Origin: Promethearchaeota archaeon
GTDB taxonomy: Archaea; Asgardarchaeota; Lokiarchaeia; Sigyniarchaeales; SOKP01
Length of the DNA stretch: 33,806 bases
Assembly: GCA_048938005.1 (NCBI GenBank)
Contig: JBHLMQ010000034.1
Span: 1-33,806, forward strand
Direction: 5' to 3'
A model generated the notes under the pieces. That model was not told the DNA's origin, did not search any database, and saw only the letters and a list, made by a program, of their open reading frames with translations. A program made the position numbers and the translations under genes. Within the stretch, counting starts at the first letter, position 1; every line of letters begins with the position of its first letter. This document shows positions 4,376-10,844 of this stretch, one piece after another.

Positions 4376-5311
4376 TTGGAATTTCAAAATATTCAGGATT
4401 TACTAAGAGAATTAAAAGATGATAACACCTCTGGCGCTTCTGAGTTTATTGATAAAGTTCTTGAAATAATTAAATTTCAACTTAGATTGATCCATGATCC
4501 ACATAAAGACATCAGAGAGAATATTTTTAACTTATCGAAACAAATAATTTATACTCGCCCAAGTATGGCTCCTCTTATCAATACAATGGGATATCTTATT
4601 CATGATTTAGAAAAAATAAATAAAAGTATTATAGAAGAAAGATTGAGCCAATTTTATATCTATAGAGAAAAAATTAAAGAATCTTTAGAGTTAGCCTTTC
4701 ACAGTTTTTTAAAAGAGAGTAAGAAAATTCCACTGAAAGTAATGCTAATATCATATAGCTCAACGATTATCAATCTAATATTGCGAAATAAAGATTTTAA
4801 CCTTGAGATATATGTTCTAGAATCAAGACCACTTCTTGAGGGACGCAAGGTTGCTGAGATTTTATCTCAATATTTTAAAACGCATCTTATAGTCGATGCT
4901 GCAATGGGAAAATTTATTGATCAAATCGATGTAGTGTTAATTGGAGTTGATAGTATCTTAGAAGATGGTTCGATTATAAATAAGATTGGCACATATCCGT
5001 TAGCTGTGCTAGCTGATTCAAGGAAAATTGATGTATATGCAGTCGCAGATTCTTTGAAGTATAACCTAAAGAGTCATTTCGGCAGAGATATTATAATTGA
5101 AAAGAAGCCTATAGAAGAAATTTATGATAAAGAAATAAAAAACACATCTTTAGAAATACATAATTATTATTTTGATATTACTCCTTCTATTTATTTTACG
5201 GGAATTATTTCTAATTATGGCATCCTAAAAATTAATGAGTTTCTGGAAAAGGTGAAAAGTGATCTTCCAATCGAGTGGTTTAAATATTTATTAAATAATA
5301 AAAGGATATGA
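4376..5311 (+). CDS. Translation initiation factor IF-2B alpha/beta/delta family protein
   Basis: Motifs SGA, RPSMAP, SYSST, ESRPLLEG, GVDSILEDGSIINKIGTYPLA and YFDITP. It lacks the catalytic Cys (THC) of the sugar-phosphate isomerase members. Confidence 0.85.
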   Translation: MEFQNIQDLLRELKDDNTSGASEFIDKVLEIIKFQLRLIHDPHKDIRENIFNLSKQIIYTRPSMAPLINTMGYLIHDLEKINKSIIEERLSQFYIYREKIKESLELAFHSFLKESKKIPLKVMLISYSSTIINLILRNKDFNLEIYVLESRPLLEGRKVAEILSQYFKTHLIVDAAMGKFIDQIDVVLIGVDSILEDGSIINKIGTYPLAVLADSRKIDVYAVADSLKYNLKSHFGRDIIIEKKPIEEIYDKEIKNTSLEIHNYYFDITPSIYFTGIISNYGILKINEFLEKVKSDLPIEWFKYLLNNKRI

Positions 5312-6555
5312 TTTTAAAATCAAAAATGAGCGCTCACGAATCAGAATTTAAAAAATTAAAAGAAAACTATACTGAAAAAAATCTTAATGTAGATAATGCT
5401 TATAGGATTACAGACCGACTAGCATTCCCTCGGTTAATTGGTTCAGAAGGAGAGAAAGAGGCTATCAAAATTGTATTGGACGAATTTAGAAAAGCAGGAT
5501 ATAATTCAATTAGCCAACAAAAGTTTAAGACTTCTTTCCATAACTGGACTTTTTCGAGATATATTTTTTCAATACTTGGTTCGGGATTGATTCTATTAGC
5601 ATTATCCTTCTATATATCTCCTATAATAACAATTTGTCTTTTCATTCTTGGAATTTACCTTTCATTTAGAGCGCTGGCAGTTTCTACTTCAACTAAAATT
5701 AAATTAAGTAGAAACCCGAAATATAATTTTGAGACAGAAAATATTTATGTTAATCTGAGAAGTAAGAATTCTAATTGTAAAATAATATTCATGGGACATT
5801 GGGATTCTAAATCTCAAACATTTTCACCATCGACACGAATTTTGATGTTTATGATATTTGTTTTTGGTTCTCTTATTCTCTATTTGTTTTATTTAATTTT
5901 AAGCCTTCTTAAGCTTTTTATGAATCTTAATTTACCAATTTTAAACAATATTTTATTAGATGTTTGTATAATCATTGCCATCATTGGAGCAATTAACTAT
6001 TTTAATAAAACAGGTAATGATTCTCCTGGGGCGTTTGATAATGCAGCAGCGGTAGGTGTGTTAATAGAACTTGCCAGATATTATAAAAAAAATCCAATTA
6101 AAAATATTGACTTAATGTTTTTAAGTACTGGTTCTGAGGAACTAAACTTAGGAGGGGCAACTCATTTTATCCAAAGTTTTAAAAATAAATTTGACAAAAG
6201 CTCAACTTTTTTTATTAATTTAGATTTCATTGGAGGTTCGGAACTAATAAGATTAATAAGTTCTTATGGTATTCCACGAAAAATTTCTTCGAAAAAATTA
6301 AATAAATTATTTCTAGAAAGTGCTAAAGACTTAGCAATTAGAATAAAAGATATATATGCCCCTACTGGAGTTTGGTCTGATTATATGCCAATAGTTCAAG
6401 AAGGATTTGAAGCTTGTTGGGTTGGTTCTCAACCGGGATTGAAGTTTGTACATACTAAGAACGATAAGATGAACTTAATTTCTAAGGAAGGAATCAAAAA
6501 CATACTCTATTTATGTATAAAGGTTATCGACAAATTTAATAATGAATATAATTAA
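5308..6555 (+). CDS. Membrane-embedded M28 family peptidase
   Basis: Motifs PRLIGSEGE, GHWDS, GAFDNAAAV, GSEE, NLD, SDY and HT..D, interrupted by about 4 hydrophobic helices. ATGA overlap with the upstream gene. Confidence 0.85.
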   Translation: MILKSKMSAHESEFKKLKENYTEKNLNVDNAYRITDRLAFPRLIGSEGEKEAIKIVLDEFRKAGYNSISQQKFKTSFHNWTFSRYIFSILGSGLILLALSFYISPIITICLFILGIYLSFRALAVSTSTKIKLSRNPKYNFETENIYVNLRSKNSNCKIIFMGHWDSKSQTFSPSTRILMFMIFVFGSLILYLFYLILSLLKLFMNLNLPILNNILLDVCIIIAIIGAINYFNKTGNDSPGAFDNAAAVGVLIELARYYKKNPIKNIDLMFLSTGSEELNLGGATHFIQSFKNKFDKSSTFFINLDFIGGSELIRLISSYGIPRKISSKKLNKLFLESAKDLAIRIKDIYAPTGVWSDYMPIVQEGFEACWVGSQPGLKFVHTKNDKMNLISKEGIKNILYLCIKVIDKFNNEYN

Positions 6556-6703
6556 TCTCATATTTTTCTGATTAATCTTGGCTATTATTTATAAATTAAA
6601 TCTAGGAAAGCTTTAAGAAATATTGTACATAACTTAAATTTTATCCTAAGATTTATTTTATCAAAATTGATTATCGAAAAAAATAATTAAAATTTTGTTT
6701 ACA

Positions 6704-7702
6704 ATGTTAACTTCAGAACAAATTAAAGAAGTTTTAAAAAATGATGTTATAAATCTTCGATTCCATGCAAGGGGAGGACAAGGAGGTGTTACTGCTTCCA
6801 ATTTATGTGTGGAAGCCTTTTATGGTTACGGTGTTTGTCAACCCCTTTTTGGTGCTGAAAGAATGGGTTCTCCAACAGAAAGTTATGTAAGACTTTCTTC
6901 AAATGAAGATTTAGTAAGAAACAATGAACAAGTGTATGGTCCTCATTTTGTTTCTGTATTAGATCCATCATTATTAGGAGAAATTAATGTAACTGCTGGA
7001 ATGCCAAGAGGCGGTTGGCTTATTGTAAATACAGTTATGGATCAAGCTACGGTTCAGGATATTGTTGGGAGAAACGATATTAATATTGCAACTATAGATG
7101 CTACAAGAATTGCTTTAGATATTTTAGGAAGAAATATTACAAATACAATAATTTTAGGGGCTTTAATTCGAGTTTCTCATCTCTTTACTGTGGATGAATT
7201 GTCTGATGCCATCATGAGACGTTTCAAAGGAGAAATCGCAGGAAAAAATATGCAAGCAATAAAACAAGCAATTGAAGAAACATGTGTATATGATCTTGGA
7301 ATTGATATTGATTTTTCTTTAGATACGAAAGTACCATGGCAACAGGTAAAACCAGGTTTGCCGGGATATAAAGAATTAGATAAAGCAGGAGTGTGGTATT
7401 GTGACGAAGATGTTATTCCATTTGGAAGTTCCCAAATAATGACTGGTTCATGGGGAGAATGGGAAATAATTTGGGATGAAGAAAAATGTACTGATTGTGC
7501 TCAATGTTGGTATATCTGCCCAGATTTTGCTATACTCAGGGTAATAGGAGAAGATGGATTATGGCATATGGCAGGAATTGATAGTTTTCATTGTAAATCT
7601 TGTCAGAATTGCTTAAACATTTGTCCAGTAGACGCTATAAGTAAACAATTAAAACAGGGTCCAGCATCTTGTGCTTTACCTGAAGATCAAGGAGGTGAAT
7701 AA
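6704..7702 (+). CDS. porC: 2-oxoacid:ferredoxin oxidoreductase gamma subunit fused to delta (2x[4Fe-4S] ferredoxin) subunit
   Basis: Gamma motifs RFHARGGQGGVT, FGAERMGSP and NTIILGAL. C-terminal CTDCAQCWYICP and CKSCQNCLNICP. ATG at 6704 is preferred over TTG at 6695. Confidence 0.9.
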   Translation: MLTSEQIKEVLKNDVINLRFHARGGQGGVTASNLCVEAFYGYGVCQPLFGAERMGSPTESYVRLSSNEDLVRNNEQVYGPHFVSVLDPSLLGEINVTAGMPRGGWLIVNTVMDQATVQDIVGRNDINIATIDATRIALDILGRNITNTIILGALIRVSHLFTVDELSDAIMRRFKGEIAGKNMQAIKQAIEETCVYDLGIDIDFSLDTKVPWQQVKPGLPGYKELDKAGVWYCDEDVIPFGSSQIMTGSWGEWEIIWDEEKCTDCAQCWYICPDFAILRVIGEDGLWHMAGIDSFHCKSCQNCLNICPVDAISKQLKQGPASCALPEDQGGE

Positions 7703-8946: not shown

Positions 8947-10035
8947 ATGGTGCAACAAGAGAGAAACATAATTAAATTGGAGGATCTATTAACAGTAGAA
9001 GGAAAATCTAATGTTTTATTTTTTAATTATGATAATGAAGCATTCATGAATACTGGTATTCAAGAAAGTGGTGGAACACCTCCATATGCATCCACTACAA
9101 CAGGGCCAGCAGGAGAGTTGATCCCTGGAAAGGTTGGAGTTAAGCAAGATTTAGTCACGCCTTTTGCCTTTTATGGTTCAAACTCATTATTTTTAGCAAC
9201 TGTCAACCCTGCATATCCTAATGATTTTATGGGTAAAGTAGTAGAGGCATTAAAAACAAATGGTTCTTCATTTATTCAAGCTTATTCTGATTGCATGAGA
9301 GGGTGGCGACATGGTGCCGAAGATGCTGTTAAAATATCGAAATTAGCCACTGATAGTGGATATTGGCCATTATATACGATTCGAGTAAAAGATGGTATTC
9401 CTACTTTCTCCTATTATCGAGGTTTGGACATAGATAAGGATAAATTTGTGGAATATCTAAGATCAATGGGACGATTCAGACATTTATTTAAGCCTAAATT
9501 CATGGAAAAAGAAATTGATGAAATTATATATTATACAGAACAAAGAAATAAGAAGATAAAAGGATTAATTGATACATTTGGGGCAGAAAAACCTGTTGAT
9601 ATTTATAGAGTTAATCGAAAAGCTTTAGAACCACAGACGCATTTATTTCCTGGACATGGTCTTTGTCCTGGATGTGGAGCTGGAATGGTTTTAAATCAAA
9701 TGGCGACAGCCGCAACTCAAGTTGCTGGTAATAATATTATATATGTAAATAATACATCTTGTTCAGAGGTGTCCACCTCTAAAGATAATGTTAGCTCATG
9801 GCGTGTCCCCTGGGTTCATCATCTATTTGAATCAGGTGCTACTGTTGCAGAAGCCTTAAGCACAGGTTATAAAATTCGAAAAGCTAAAGGTGATTTCAAT
9901 GGTGAAGTACCCTATGTAATACATATTGGAGGGGATGGATCAACTTACGATATTGGATTTCAATTTCTAAAGGCAGCTTTAGTCCGAACAAGCACTATGG
10001 TTGAGATGAATCTTTATTTAAAAGATCAAAAATAA
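8947..10035 (+). CDS. porB: Pyruvate/2-oxoacid:ferredoxin oxidoreductase beta subunit, circularly permuted
   Basis: All PorB motifs are present but in swapped order. YDNEAFMNTGIQ.S..TP, K.DL, SDC..GW and GYWPLY come first, and GHGLCPGCG, NNTSCSEV, HHLFE and GGDGSTYDIGFQ come last. Confidence 0.9.
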   Translation: MVQQERNIIKLEDLLTVEGKSNVLFFNYDNEAFMNTGIQESGGTPPYASTTTGPAGELIPGKVGVKQDLVTPFAFYGSNSLFLATVNPAYPNDFMGKVVEALKTNGSSFIQAYSDCMRGWRHGAEDAVKISKLATDSGYWPLYTIRVKDGIPTFSYYRGLDIDKDKFVEYLRSMGRFRHLFKPKFMEKEIDEIIYYTEQRNKKIKGLIDTFGAEKPVDIYRVNRKALEPQTHLFPGHGLCPGCGAGMVLNQMATAATQVAGNNIIYVNNTSCSEVSTSKDNVSSWRVPWVHHLFESGATVAEALSTGYKIRKAKGDFNGEVPYVIHIGGDGSTYDIGFQFLKAALVRTSTMVEMNLYLKDQK

Positions 10036-10076: not shown

Positions 10077-10844
10077 ATGCCAATTTATATAGAGAAAAAT
10101 TATCCTGTTTTTACTGTAATAATTGATAATCCTCAAGTGAAAAATGCTGTAGATGGCCCTACGGCATCAGAAATTGCAAATGCTTTTCGGGATTTTGAAG
10201 AAGATGAAAATGCATTAGTTGGAGTACTATGGGGAGCAAATGGAACATTTTGTTCCGGAGCAAATTTAAAAGCTATTGCAAAAGGTCAAGGGAATCGGAT
10301 TGATAAAGAAGGAGATGGTCCAATGGGACCTAGTAGAATGATGTTATCTAAACCTATAATTGCAGCAGTGGCAGGTTATGCTGTTGCGGGTGGATTAGAA
10401 CTTGCTTTATGGTGTGATATGCGTGTTGCTGAAAAAAATGCTATTTTTGGAGTTTTTAATCGTCAATTTGGCGTCCCTCTTATAGATGGAGGGACTGTGC
10501 GCCTTCCAAGATTAATTGGATTAAGTAGAGCGATGGATATGATCCTCACTGGACGTCCAGTTTCTTCCCAAGAAGCTTATGAGTGGGGTCTTATAAATCG
10601 TATTGTTGATATCGGACAATCCAAACTAGAAGCGGAGAAATTAGCCAAAGACTTAGCATCATTTCCACAAGTTTGTATGAAAAATGATCGTATGTCTACA
10701 TATACTCAGTTTGGATTAGGTATAAAAGAAGCTATGATAAAAGAATTCGAATTTGGTTTAAAAACATTAGAAAGCAAGGAATATCTAACTGGGAGTGAAG
10801 CATTTTCTCAAGGAAAAGGAAAACATGGATTTTTTAATGATTAG
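10077..10844 (+). CDS. Enoyl-CoA hydratase/crotonase family protein
   Basis: FCSGANL, KPIIAAVAGYAVAGGLELALWCD, MDMILTGRPV and WGLINRIV motifs. Confidence 0.92.
   Translation: MPIYIEKNYPVFTVIIDNPQVKNAVDGPTASEIANAFRDFEEDENALVGVLWGANGTFCSGANLKAIAKGQGNRIDKEGDGPMGPSRMMLSKPIIAAVAGYAVAGGLELALWCDMRVAEKNAIFGVFNRQFGVPLIDGGTVRLPRLIGLSRAMDMILTGRPVSSQEAYEWGLINRIVDIGQSKLEAEKLAKDLASFPQVCMKNDRMSTYTQFGLGIKEAMIKEFEFGLKTLESKEYLTGSEAFSQGKGKHGFFND

Follow-up and report, generated by a model that had tools for sequence, protein, structure and literature searches.

A circularly permuted beta subunit of a 2-oxoacid:ferredoxin oxidoreductase in Lokiarchaeia

Described relatives and the order of the halves

2-Oxoacid:ferredoxin oxidoreductases (OFORs) belong to the ancient core of anaerobic carbon and energy metabolism, and to our knowledge the GDG...N motif has for three decades been the defining signature of all thiamine diphosphate (ThDP) enzymes. 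The closest described systems to the gene reported here are the four-subunit enzyme of Methanosarcina acetivorans (PDB 9bt4) and the oxalate oxidoreductase of Moorella thermoacetica (5c4i, 5exd, 5exe), the latter built from three polypeptides with a fused domain III and ferredoxin subunit. Reordering has been described in the ThDP superfamily at the level of whole domains: one preprint distinguishes a PP-PYR-third domain order (transketolase and dehydrogenase types) from a PYR-third domain-PP order (decarboxylase types), calls the difference a circular permutation, and states that the GDG...N motif is 'strictly maintained' through it (bioRxiv 10.1101/2021.03.21.436335). Here we describe an OFOR beta subunit that shares with those enzymes a reordering through which the cofactor site is expected to stay intact, but in which the cut falls within the PP domain and within the GDG...N motif itself, whereas in those enzymes whole domains move. 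Its gene lies at positions 8947 to 10035 of the forward strand of a 33,806-nucleotide stretch of DNA (contig JBHLMQ010000034.1 of assembly GCA_048938005.1, from a Promethearchaeota archaeon of the class Lokiarchaeia), the whole of which is referred to as the window herein.

When the permuted beta protein was compared with PDB chains using phmmer, its residues 228-347 matched residues 5-115 of M. acetivorans PorB (9bt4_C; 68.8 bits, i-E 3.5e-18), and its residues 22-193 matched residues 118-282 of the same chain (99.9 bits, i-E 1.3e-27). With 169 bits in all, 9bt4_C was the best PDB sequence match. The second best, the Moorella oxalate oxidoreductase beta subunit (5c4i_C), gave a likewise reversed pair, with residues 22-193 matching 130-290 and residues 228-347 matching 13-127; its own order is canonical, unlike that of the permuted beta. 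A reversed two-piece match of this kind to PorB is far beyond chance, and the permuted order is real. An earlier interpretation of the DNA made without database searches (the sequence-only reading) had called the protein a permuted PorB and not a colinear one, and the two matches bear this out. We regard the gene as encoding a genuine, functional, circularly permuted beta subunit, corresponding to OFOR domain VI (the PP domain, which binds ThDP and a [4Fe-4S] cluster), in a 2-oxoacid:ferredoxin oxidoreductase encoded by three genes, with a probability of roughly 0.88. The gene and its parts are laid out as follows:

8947..10035, + strand: permuted beta, whole open reading frame, 362 aa, with its stop codon at 10033-10035
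8947..9009, + strand: new N-terminal leader, residues 1-21, with no PorB counterpart
9010..9525, + strand: canonical C-terminal half, residues 22-193, with the NVLFFNYDNEAFMNTG strand and loop, the fourth cluster Cys (C116) and GYWPLY
9526..9627, + strand: linker, residues 194-227, bridging the former C- and N-termini and flanked on each side by a PDB-matched stretch
9628..9987, + strand: canonical N-terminal half, residues 228-347, with CPGC (C240, C243), NNTSC (C272), GGDG (329-331) and the post-GDG helix
9988..10035, + strand: new C-terminal tail, residues 348-362, and the stop codon, running on from the GDG helix in the structural model

The cut site is the loop that connects the GDG helix (...DIGFQFLKAALVR) to the strand NVLFFNYDNE. 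A contiguous GDG-x(about 25-30)-N/DNE motif is absent from the protein: a distance of 32 residues separates GDG from the C-terminus, and one of 28 separates DNE from the N-terminus. The landmarks of the sequence-only reading were exact, with N22 of NVLFFNYDNEAFMNTG at 9010, H232 of HLFPGHGLCPGCG at 9640 and GDG at 9931-9939, and the motifs that it had named, SDCMRGW (with C116), GYWPLY and NNTSC (C272), were all found. Four cysteines, C240, C243, C272 and C116, align to those of 9bt4_C and 5c4i_C, and are presumably the ligands of the proximal [4Fe-4S] cluster. The ThDP/Mg residues, the four cluster cysteines and the WPLY region are shared with M. acetivorans PorB, which too is encoded alongside alpha, gamma and delta. 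It differs in the order of the halves and in length, the permuted beta having 362 aa versus 296, with a leader of 21 residues, a tail of 15 and a linker of about 34 added. The M. acetivorans enzyme also differs in having four subunits, whereas gamma and delta are fused in the operon of the window.

The swapped halves also determine how the protein fares against curated models. Pfam TPP_enzyme_C matched residues 17-111 only, over model positions 69-150 of 151 and with 23.1 bits versus a cut-off of 21.9. The NCBIfam models PorB, VorB and oxalate oxidoreductase beta scored 210, 175 and 180 bits against cut-offs of 405, 405 and 590, each in two stretches, so that no colinear, full-length match above cut-off to a curated family model was obtained. 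These models fail on the permuted beta because its halves are swapped. It probably works like PorB, although it has neither the contiguous motif nor the colinear match by which PorB proteins are recognised. Canonical Por/Vor-type beta subunits of the same family are encoded elsewhere in the genome, on contigs C63 and C96, with alpha and delta genes beside them and, on C96, a gamma gene too. In contrast to the permuted beta, to which they are 32-38% identical, these two proteins are colinear with the PorB and VorB models, at 365-400 bits and just under the cut-off of 405, and they fall elsewhere in the tree described below.

Distribution, descent and selection

A word-indexed search for homologous proteins returned 249 matches, the best 120 of which are described here. 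Most of these 120 were 356-368 aa long, 55-94% identical to the query and colinear with it over 95-100% of its length, the remainder being shorter or partial. They derived from NCBI, JGI, ENA and Logan assemblies and carried the names Lokiarchaeota, Promethearchaeota and Helarchaeota, with one Thor- and one Hermodarchaeota label. All of the NCBI names among them were 'hypothetical protein', a label that follows from NCBIfam scores below every cut-off. When the best 150 matches among representatives clustered at 50% identity were considered, the sole other full-length colinear protein was P0121, accompanied by a few fragments; the others matched in two stretches. Hidden Markov models of the two halves assigned 128 proteins to the permuted order and 130 to the canonical order, with no intermediates. 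A search for sequencing runs listed at least 20 DNA rows from 7 studies and none of RNA, which bears on neither expression nor habitat.

We surveyed 161 genomes of the class, including that of the window, using a match threshold of E 1e-50 or better. The permuted beta gene was present in 130 of them, covering all 7 families and 26 of the 30 genera, and in 35 of the 40 high-quality genomes; single-contig genomes with the gene include G213, G309, G312, G337 and G380. By family, the counts were 107/134 (f1), 1/1 (f31), 12/14 (f2), 4/4 (f32), 1/3 (f4), 2/2 (f3) and 2/2 (f33). In a 300-genome sample of the phylum, counted by hand, the gene was found in 58 of 68 genomes of the window's own family, in 6/7, 1/1 and 0/1 genomes of three other families of the class, and in a single genome (G211) among 223 of other classes. 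The G211 copy lies on a 2.8-kb contig (L038, G211:C23:1-2799), is 79-84% identical to the operon of the window, and belongs to a 5.9-Mb bin with 8% contamination; this contig is probably mis-binned, that is, a contaminant. The sequence-only reading had proposed that the same permutation be sought in related genomes, where a colinear gene was indeed found, and that it might mark a lineage, which holds at the level of the class, with 7 of 7 families positive versus 1 probable contaminant in 223 genomes of other classes.

The survey bears directly on whether the gene might be an assembly or binning artefact, produced by putting together the two halves of an ordinary porB in reverse order or by collapsing a tandem repeat. 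The source genome, a 101-contig assembly with 7.23% contamination, gives some room for such a fault. However, the same order, length and frame recur in the 130 class genomes, single-contig ones among them, and the order recurs at 55-94% identity in the proteins from NCBI, JGI, ENA and Logan among the best 120 matches. An artefact is not inherited with sequence divergence, nor would it yield a ratio of non-synonymous to synonymous substitution rates (dN/dS) near 0.05, as reported below. We consider the probability of an artefact to be negligible; misassembly, which the sequence-only reading had named as a way in which it could fail, is ruled out by the recurrence of the colinear gene.

A quick maximum-likelihood tree (IQ-TREE, LG+C20, no outgroup) was computed after the halves had been put in the same order for alignment. 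It held 83 rows, namely 20 permuted proteins, 55 canonical representatives and 8 canonical genes from Asgard loci, while 108 of the 128 permuted proteins and 20 of the 75 eligible canonical ones stood outside it. The 20 permuted rows formed one clade with an SH-aLRT support of 100 and a stem of 1.16 substitutions per site; the sister of this clade is a polytomy in the quick tree. This topology indicates that the permutation has a single origin.

To describe selection on the gene, we compared the window's copy pairwise with those of ten relatives, dS being unsaturated in 8 of the 10 pairs. In these eight pairs, dN/dS was 0.035-0.061 for the whole permuted gene and 0.020-0.075 for both halves, where the dS of a half could be estimated; values for the leader, linker and tail were higher and noisier than those of the core. 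In an alignment of 107 permuted proteins, Y28, D29, N30, E31, A32, N35, T36, G37, C116, C240, C243, C272, G329, D330 and G331 were invariant in 107/107 sequences, and I9 and L15 of the leader were at least 90% conserved. These ratios and this alignment indicate that the permuted beta is under purifying selection. They also uphold two statements of the sequence-only reading: that all four cluster cysteines and the TPP residues are kept, and, as far as purifying selection and invariant cofactor ligands can support it, that the protein is functional.

Inserts, partial copies and a fusion were observed in relatives. In four of the five relatives that we examined for a flagged internal stop, the permuted porB gene carries an insert of 30 bases (31 in L045) after the codon for G37 (NTG|IQES), at the following positions:

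L042:552-582: insert in G321
L043:532-562: insert in G377
L046:581-611: insert in G376
L045:569-600: insert in G019

The insert holds the sole in-frame stop of the gene, except in L045, where it shifts the frame instead, so that the gene would be unreadable unless the insert were removed. It contains a hairpin of 7-9 bp with a stem that shows covariation across the genomes, and the exon bases on either side are able to pair. Archaeal bulge-helix-bulge sites are cut by a fixed rule, and excision according to this rule would give back the nearly invariant Ile38. The insert therefore looks like an archaeal mini-intron of the bulge-helix-bulge type in a protein gene. The window's own permuted gene is without it.

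Between permuted porB and the crotonase gene that follows the operon, extra genes were present in some relatives: a UPF0175/DUF3368 pair in G171, and FrhB-like and FlpD-like genes in G329. Behind each insertion, part of the porB 3' end is present a second time, in G329, G171 and G252, which suggests an insertion hot spot that duplicates the end of the gene:

L039:3053-3400: partial porB copy in G329, residues 247-362
L040:3644-3742: partial porB copy in G171, residues 330-362
L041:2079-2231: partial porB copy in G252, residues 308-358

In addition, a 715-aa open frame at L035:1084-3229 (G153:C34) joins alpha residues 1-334 to residues 20-362 of the permuted beta; this frame could be a natural fusion of alpha and beta that has suffered a deletion, or else a fault of assembly.

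Operon, predicted fold and partner

The permuted beta is the last of three closely spaced + strand genes in the window, preceded by those for a fused gamma-delta subunit and an alpha subunit. The remaining features of the operon and its downstream flank are:

6695..7702, + strand: fused gamma-delta subunit (OFOR domain III and two-cluster ferredoxin domain V), 335 aa
7707..8945, + strand: alpha subunit (PYR domain I and domain II), 412 aa
10036..10076, + strand: T-rich spacer past the operon, read directly from the sequence
10077..10844, + strand: crotonase/enoyl-CoA hydratase gene (Pfam ECH_1, 5.9e-40; NCBIfam PRK08259, 385 bits, over cut-off)

The gamma-delta protein matches Pfam POR over residues 27-194 (4.2e-26) and Fer4 families over residues 258-320, and the NCBIfam models PorC_KorC and PorD_KorD are both above cut-off. 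The alpha protein matches Pfam POR_N (1.6e-53) and PFOR_II (9.1e-12), whereas its NCBIfam PorA_Arch score of 290 bits is below the cut-off of 550. As listed, the alpha open reading frame begins at a GTG at 7671 and overlaps the gamma-delta gene; in relatives, alpha starts at the Met equivalent to 7707 (MS-I/V-EPM), 5 nt past the gamma-delta stop. The ATG of the permuted beta lies 1 nt after the TAA of alpha and T-rich sequence follows its stop, both as the sequence-only reading had described; the T-rich spacer may act as a terminator.

Loci with flanking DNA retain gamma-delta, alpha and permuted beta in this order, including the most distant ones, in which beta identity is 53-63%, and gamma-delta is one open reading frame in every permuted locus. 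In the canonical loci L030-L033, which come from other classes, gamma and delta are matched separately, in two stretches, and beta has its conventional order. The alpha subunits of permuted loci are 62-96% identical to that of the window versus 31-37% for those of canonical Asgard loci, so the whole enzyme represents a distinct lineage.

Past the three operon genes, no neighbour was conserved among the loci compared. The crotonase gene is limited to the window's own family: it follows the operon in L006, L008, L012, L013, L015, L020, L021 and L022 among the 19 own-family loci (L006-L024), and was not matched downstream in the more distant permuted loci L025-L029. Genes for an M32 carboxypeptidase and a pyridoxal phosphate (PLP) enzyme are neighbours in one genus only. 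Upstream of the operon, the window encodes an IF-2B-family protein (4376-5311) and an M28 peptidase with a membrane anchor (5308-6555). Along with the crotonase, these suggest a setting of peptide, amino-acid and acyl-CoA metabolism, which is not kept in other families.

We modelled the permuted beta with AlphaFold2 on the 107-sequence alignment. The model is one compact fold (pLDDT 84.6, pTM 0.89) in which the leader forms a strand (6-10) and a helix (11-15), followed by a strand at 21-28. The linker region forms a long helix (187-211) and then a strand (212-221) with pLDDT >90, and the old N-half ends in a strand (323-328) and a helix (337-354) that extends into the tail. In a Foldseek search, only OFOR chains were found at E <1e-4, with 9bt4_C as the best fold match, each aligned over 208-271 columns, or roughly half to two thirds of the chain.

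Docking of alpha with the permuted beta scored 0.83, 0.83 and 0.80 versus 0.00 for the best of three controls; the runs agreed in at least 97% of contacts, and partner pLDDT was at least 86. Among solved complexes, 58 of 80 attained this mark, compared with 2 of 110 mismatched pairs; this calibration applies only roughly here, because our docking used our own alignments. The predicted beta interface comprises residues 262-358, mostly of the old N-half and including tail residues 351, 355 and 357-358, and the predicted alpha interface consists of residues around the NVESE motif. The docking model supports alpha-beta binding, with the proviso that a pass may reflect likeness to solved complexes. 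The sequence-only reading had conceded that it would fall if the TPP site could not form in a model; the single domain is predicted to fold and the permuted beta to sit on alpha.

The chain opens with the strand bearing the latter half of the Mg-diphosphate motif (YDNEAFMNTG) and continues into the old C-half with the fourth cluster Cys. The predicted helix-plus-strand linker of about 34 residues then leads into the old N-half, with its CxxC and third Cys, and the chain ends with GDG and its helix. The ordinary PP fold would re-form with the first and last core strands adjacent, so that D330 from the C-terminal end and DNE/NTG from the N-terminal end could meet at Mg-ThDP, and the permuted PP domain would dock on the alpha PYR domain as in canonical enzymes. 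The rearrangement probably arose once, in the stem of Lokiarchaeia as the class is defined in the genome collection, and has since been kept under purifying selection.

Several observations weigh against a functional permuted beta in a core enzyme. No match was found in 31 of the 161 class genomes, including 5 of the 40 high-quality ones, which implies that these archaea can dispense with the enzyme. In all, six POR_N alpha genes are present in the genome of the window, the others lying on contigs C54, C63, C96, C5 and C28, which implies high redundancy. All NCBIfam scores of the permuted beta lie below cut-off and the stem branch of its clade is long, both of which leave room for altered specificity or an altered role; alpha, likewise, reads NSWEF where solved enzymes have NDHQD/GDHQD, which leaves the same room. 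In the AlphaFold2 model, pLDDT is <50 at residues 32-40, 52-57 and 117-119, the loops that hold the cofactors, and the ThDP site is unmodelled; low confidence there would be expected of apo loops. Finally, Foldseek aligned 9bt4_C over about 211 columns only (E 1.9e-10, about 33% identity), with a TM-score of 0.43 by query length and 0.52 by target length; a partial alignment is what a sequential aligner produces with a permutant.

Taken together with the in-frame stop in a few relatives, the low NCBIfam scores, the long stem, the missing genes and the poorly modelled cofactor loops might point to a decaying or non-catalytic relic, that is, a beta subunit that has lost ThDP binding and persists as a pseudogene or as a structural or regulatory subunit. 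Against this, every ThDP/Mg and cluster ligand is invariant in the 107 sequences, dN/dS is low in both halves wherever it could be estimated, and the alpha partner is better conserved still. In the four relatives with inserts, moreover, the stops lie within a 30-31-base hairpin that resembles a spliced mini-intron and is unlike decay. We thus judge a relic to be very improbable.

Substrate, origin and meaning of the permutation

If the permuted beta is part of a functional OFOR, its substrate is most likely pyruvate or another small 2-oxoacid, such as 2-oxobutyrate, since the best model matches of the subunits are to Por-type families; this is the weakest step of our proposal. The alpha subunit keeps FPITPQT, NVESE and SARA...LSI aligned to the enzymes of M. 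acetivorans and Desulfovibrio africanus, and FPITPQT, SARA...LSI and beta N35 align to their counterparts in 9bt4, 7plm and 1b0p. We take these alpha positions to be those of the pyruvate pocket and of ThDP activation. The enzyme would feed acyl-CoA and reduced ferredoxin into amino-acid fermentation. In a cultured relative, 2-oxoacid:ferredoxin oxidoreductases acting on pyruvate or 2-oxobutyrate are presented as the main energy-yielding step and these acids as key intermediates (Imachi et al. 2020, PMC7015854). The same study regards 2-oxoacid oxidation as the principal source of ATP for Loki-type archaea and also for the proposed ancestor of Asgard archaea (PMC7015854).

A functional enzyme might alternatively act on a different 2-oxoacid (2-oxobutyrate, branched-chain, aromatic or oxalate-like) or run mainly in the synthase direction. 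The unmet equivalog cut-offs (PorB 210, oxalate beta 180, VorB 175 bits) would fit this, as would the presence of two canonical Por/Vor-type sets in the same genome and, among the neighbours, peptidases, a crotonase and, in one genus, a PLP enzyme. The three-gene layout with its fused gamma-delta subunit resembles that of oxalate oxidoreductase, and the study of the cultured relative names 2-oxobutyrate beside pyruvate (PMC7015854). On the other side, all three subunits match best to pyruvate-type models and the M. acetivorans pyruvate oxidoreductase structure, alpha retains the residues at the presumed pyruvate-pocket positions, and the neighbours are not conserved outside the three genes. 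As for oxalate in particular, the NCBIfam oxalate oxidoreductase models score 129 bits for alpha, 180 for beta and 66 for delta against cut-offs of 500, 590 and 230, the last matching gamma-delta residues 55-317; judged from these comparisons, nothing in the operon points to oxalate as the substrate. A non-pyruvate or synthase role is accordingly a possibility that we take seriously but do not favour, and pyruvate or a similarly small 2-oxoacid is our working assignment.

The textbook route to a circular permutation is tandem duplication, in-frame fusion and trimming, under which leader and tail should derive, as remnants, from the helix and the strand at the cut. A comparison of leader and tail with the GDG helix and DNE strand by hhalign gave just a 9-column match in the wrong register (P 0.11), and a fixed-register profile score ranked 189 of 289 registers; degenerate remnants are thus not supported. 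Because the leader and tail bear no detectable likeness to the segments expected as duplication remnants, the gene could instead have undergone fission at the loop between the GDG helix and the strand, followed by re-fusion in the other order. Yet under both models, segments of only 15-21 residues would be expected to lose their signal along so long a stem, and no split PorB was found: those short 'C-half only' proteins of the representative library that were read were all contig-end fragments or internal-Met calls, none of them a split gene. We consider fission and re-fusion rather doubtful as the origin of the permutation.

The 24 'C-half only' entries considered as candidates for a split PorB intermediate include fragments, long fused proteins and canonical-length proteins with a sub-threshold N-half.

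The permutation is a real, old and selected variant of a subunit of a core anaerobic enzyme; it marks a class and is unannotated in public records. No description of a permuted OFOR, or of a permutation inside a PP domain, was found in a search of the full-text literature, with subscription journals and supplements outside that search. We lean slightly towards the view that no natural circular permutation had been found before within the ThDP-binding PP domain of a thiamine enzyme, and that this one cuts GDG...N and yet may leave the enzyme active; that it is a single rare genomic change marking Lokiarchaeia; and that the new termini, a tail predicted to touch alpha and a leader strand, have changed how the cofactor site is assembled or closed. 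A cofactor site built from the two ends of the chain would identify the loop after the GDG helix as a permissive break point, and would make the permuted beta a ready test case for PP domain folding and Mg-ThDP loading. As the protein is labelled 'hypothetical protein', metabolic reconstructions of these archaea can miss the enzyme. A rare genomic change found in all 7 sampled families may also be usable as a marker of the clade and as a flag for mis-binned contigs.

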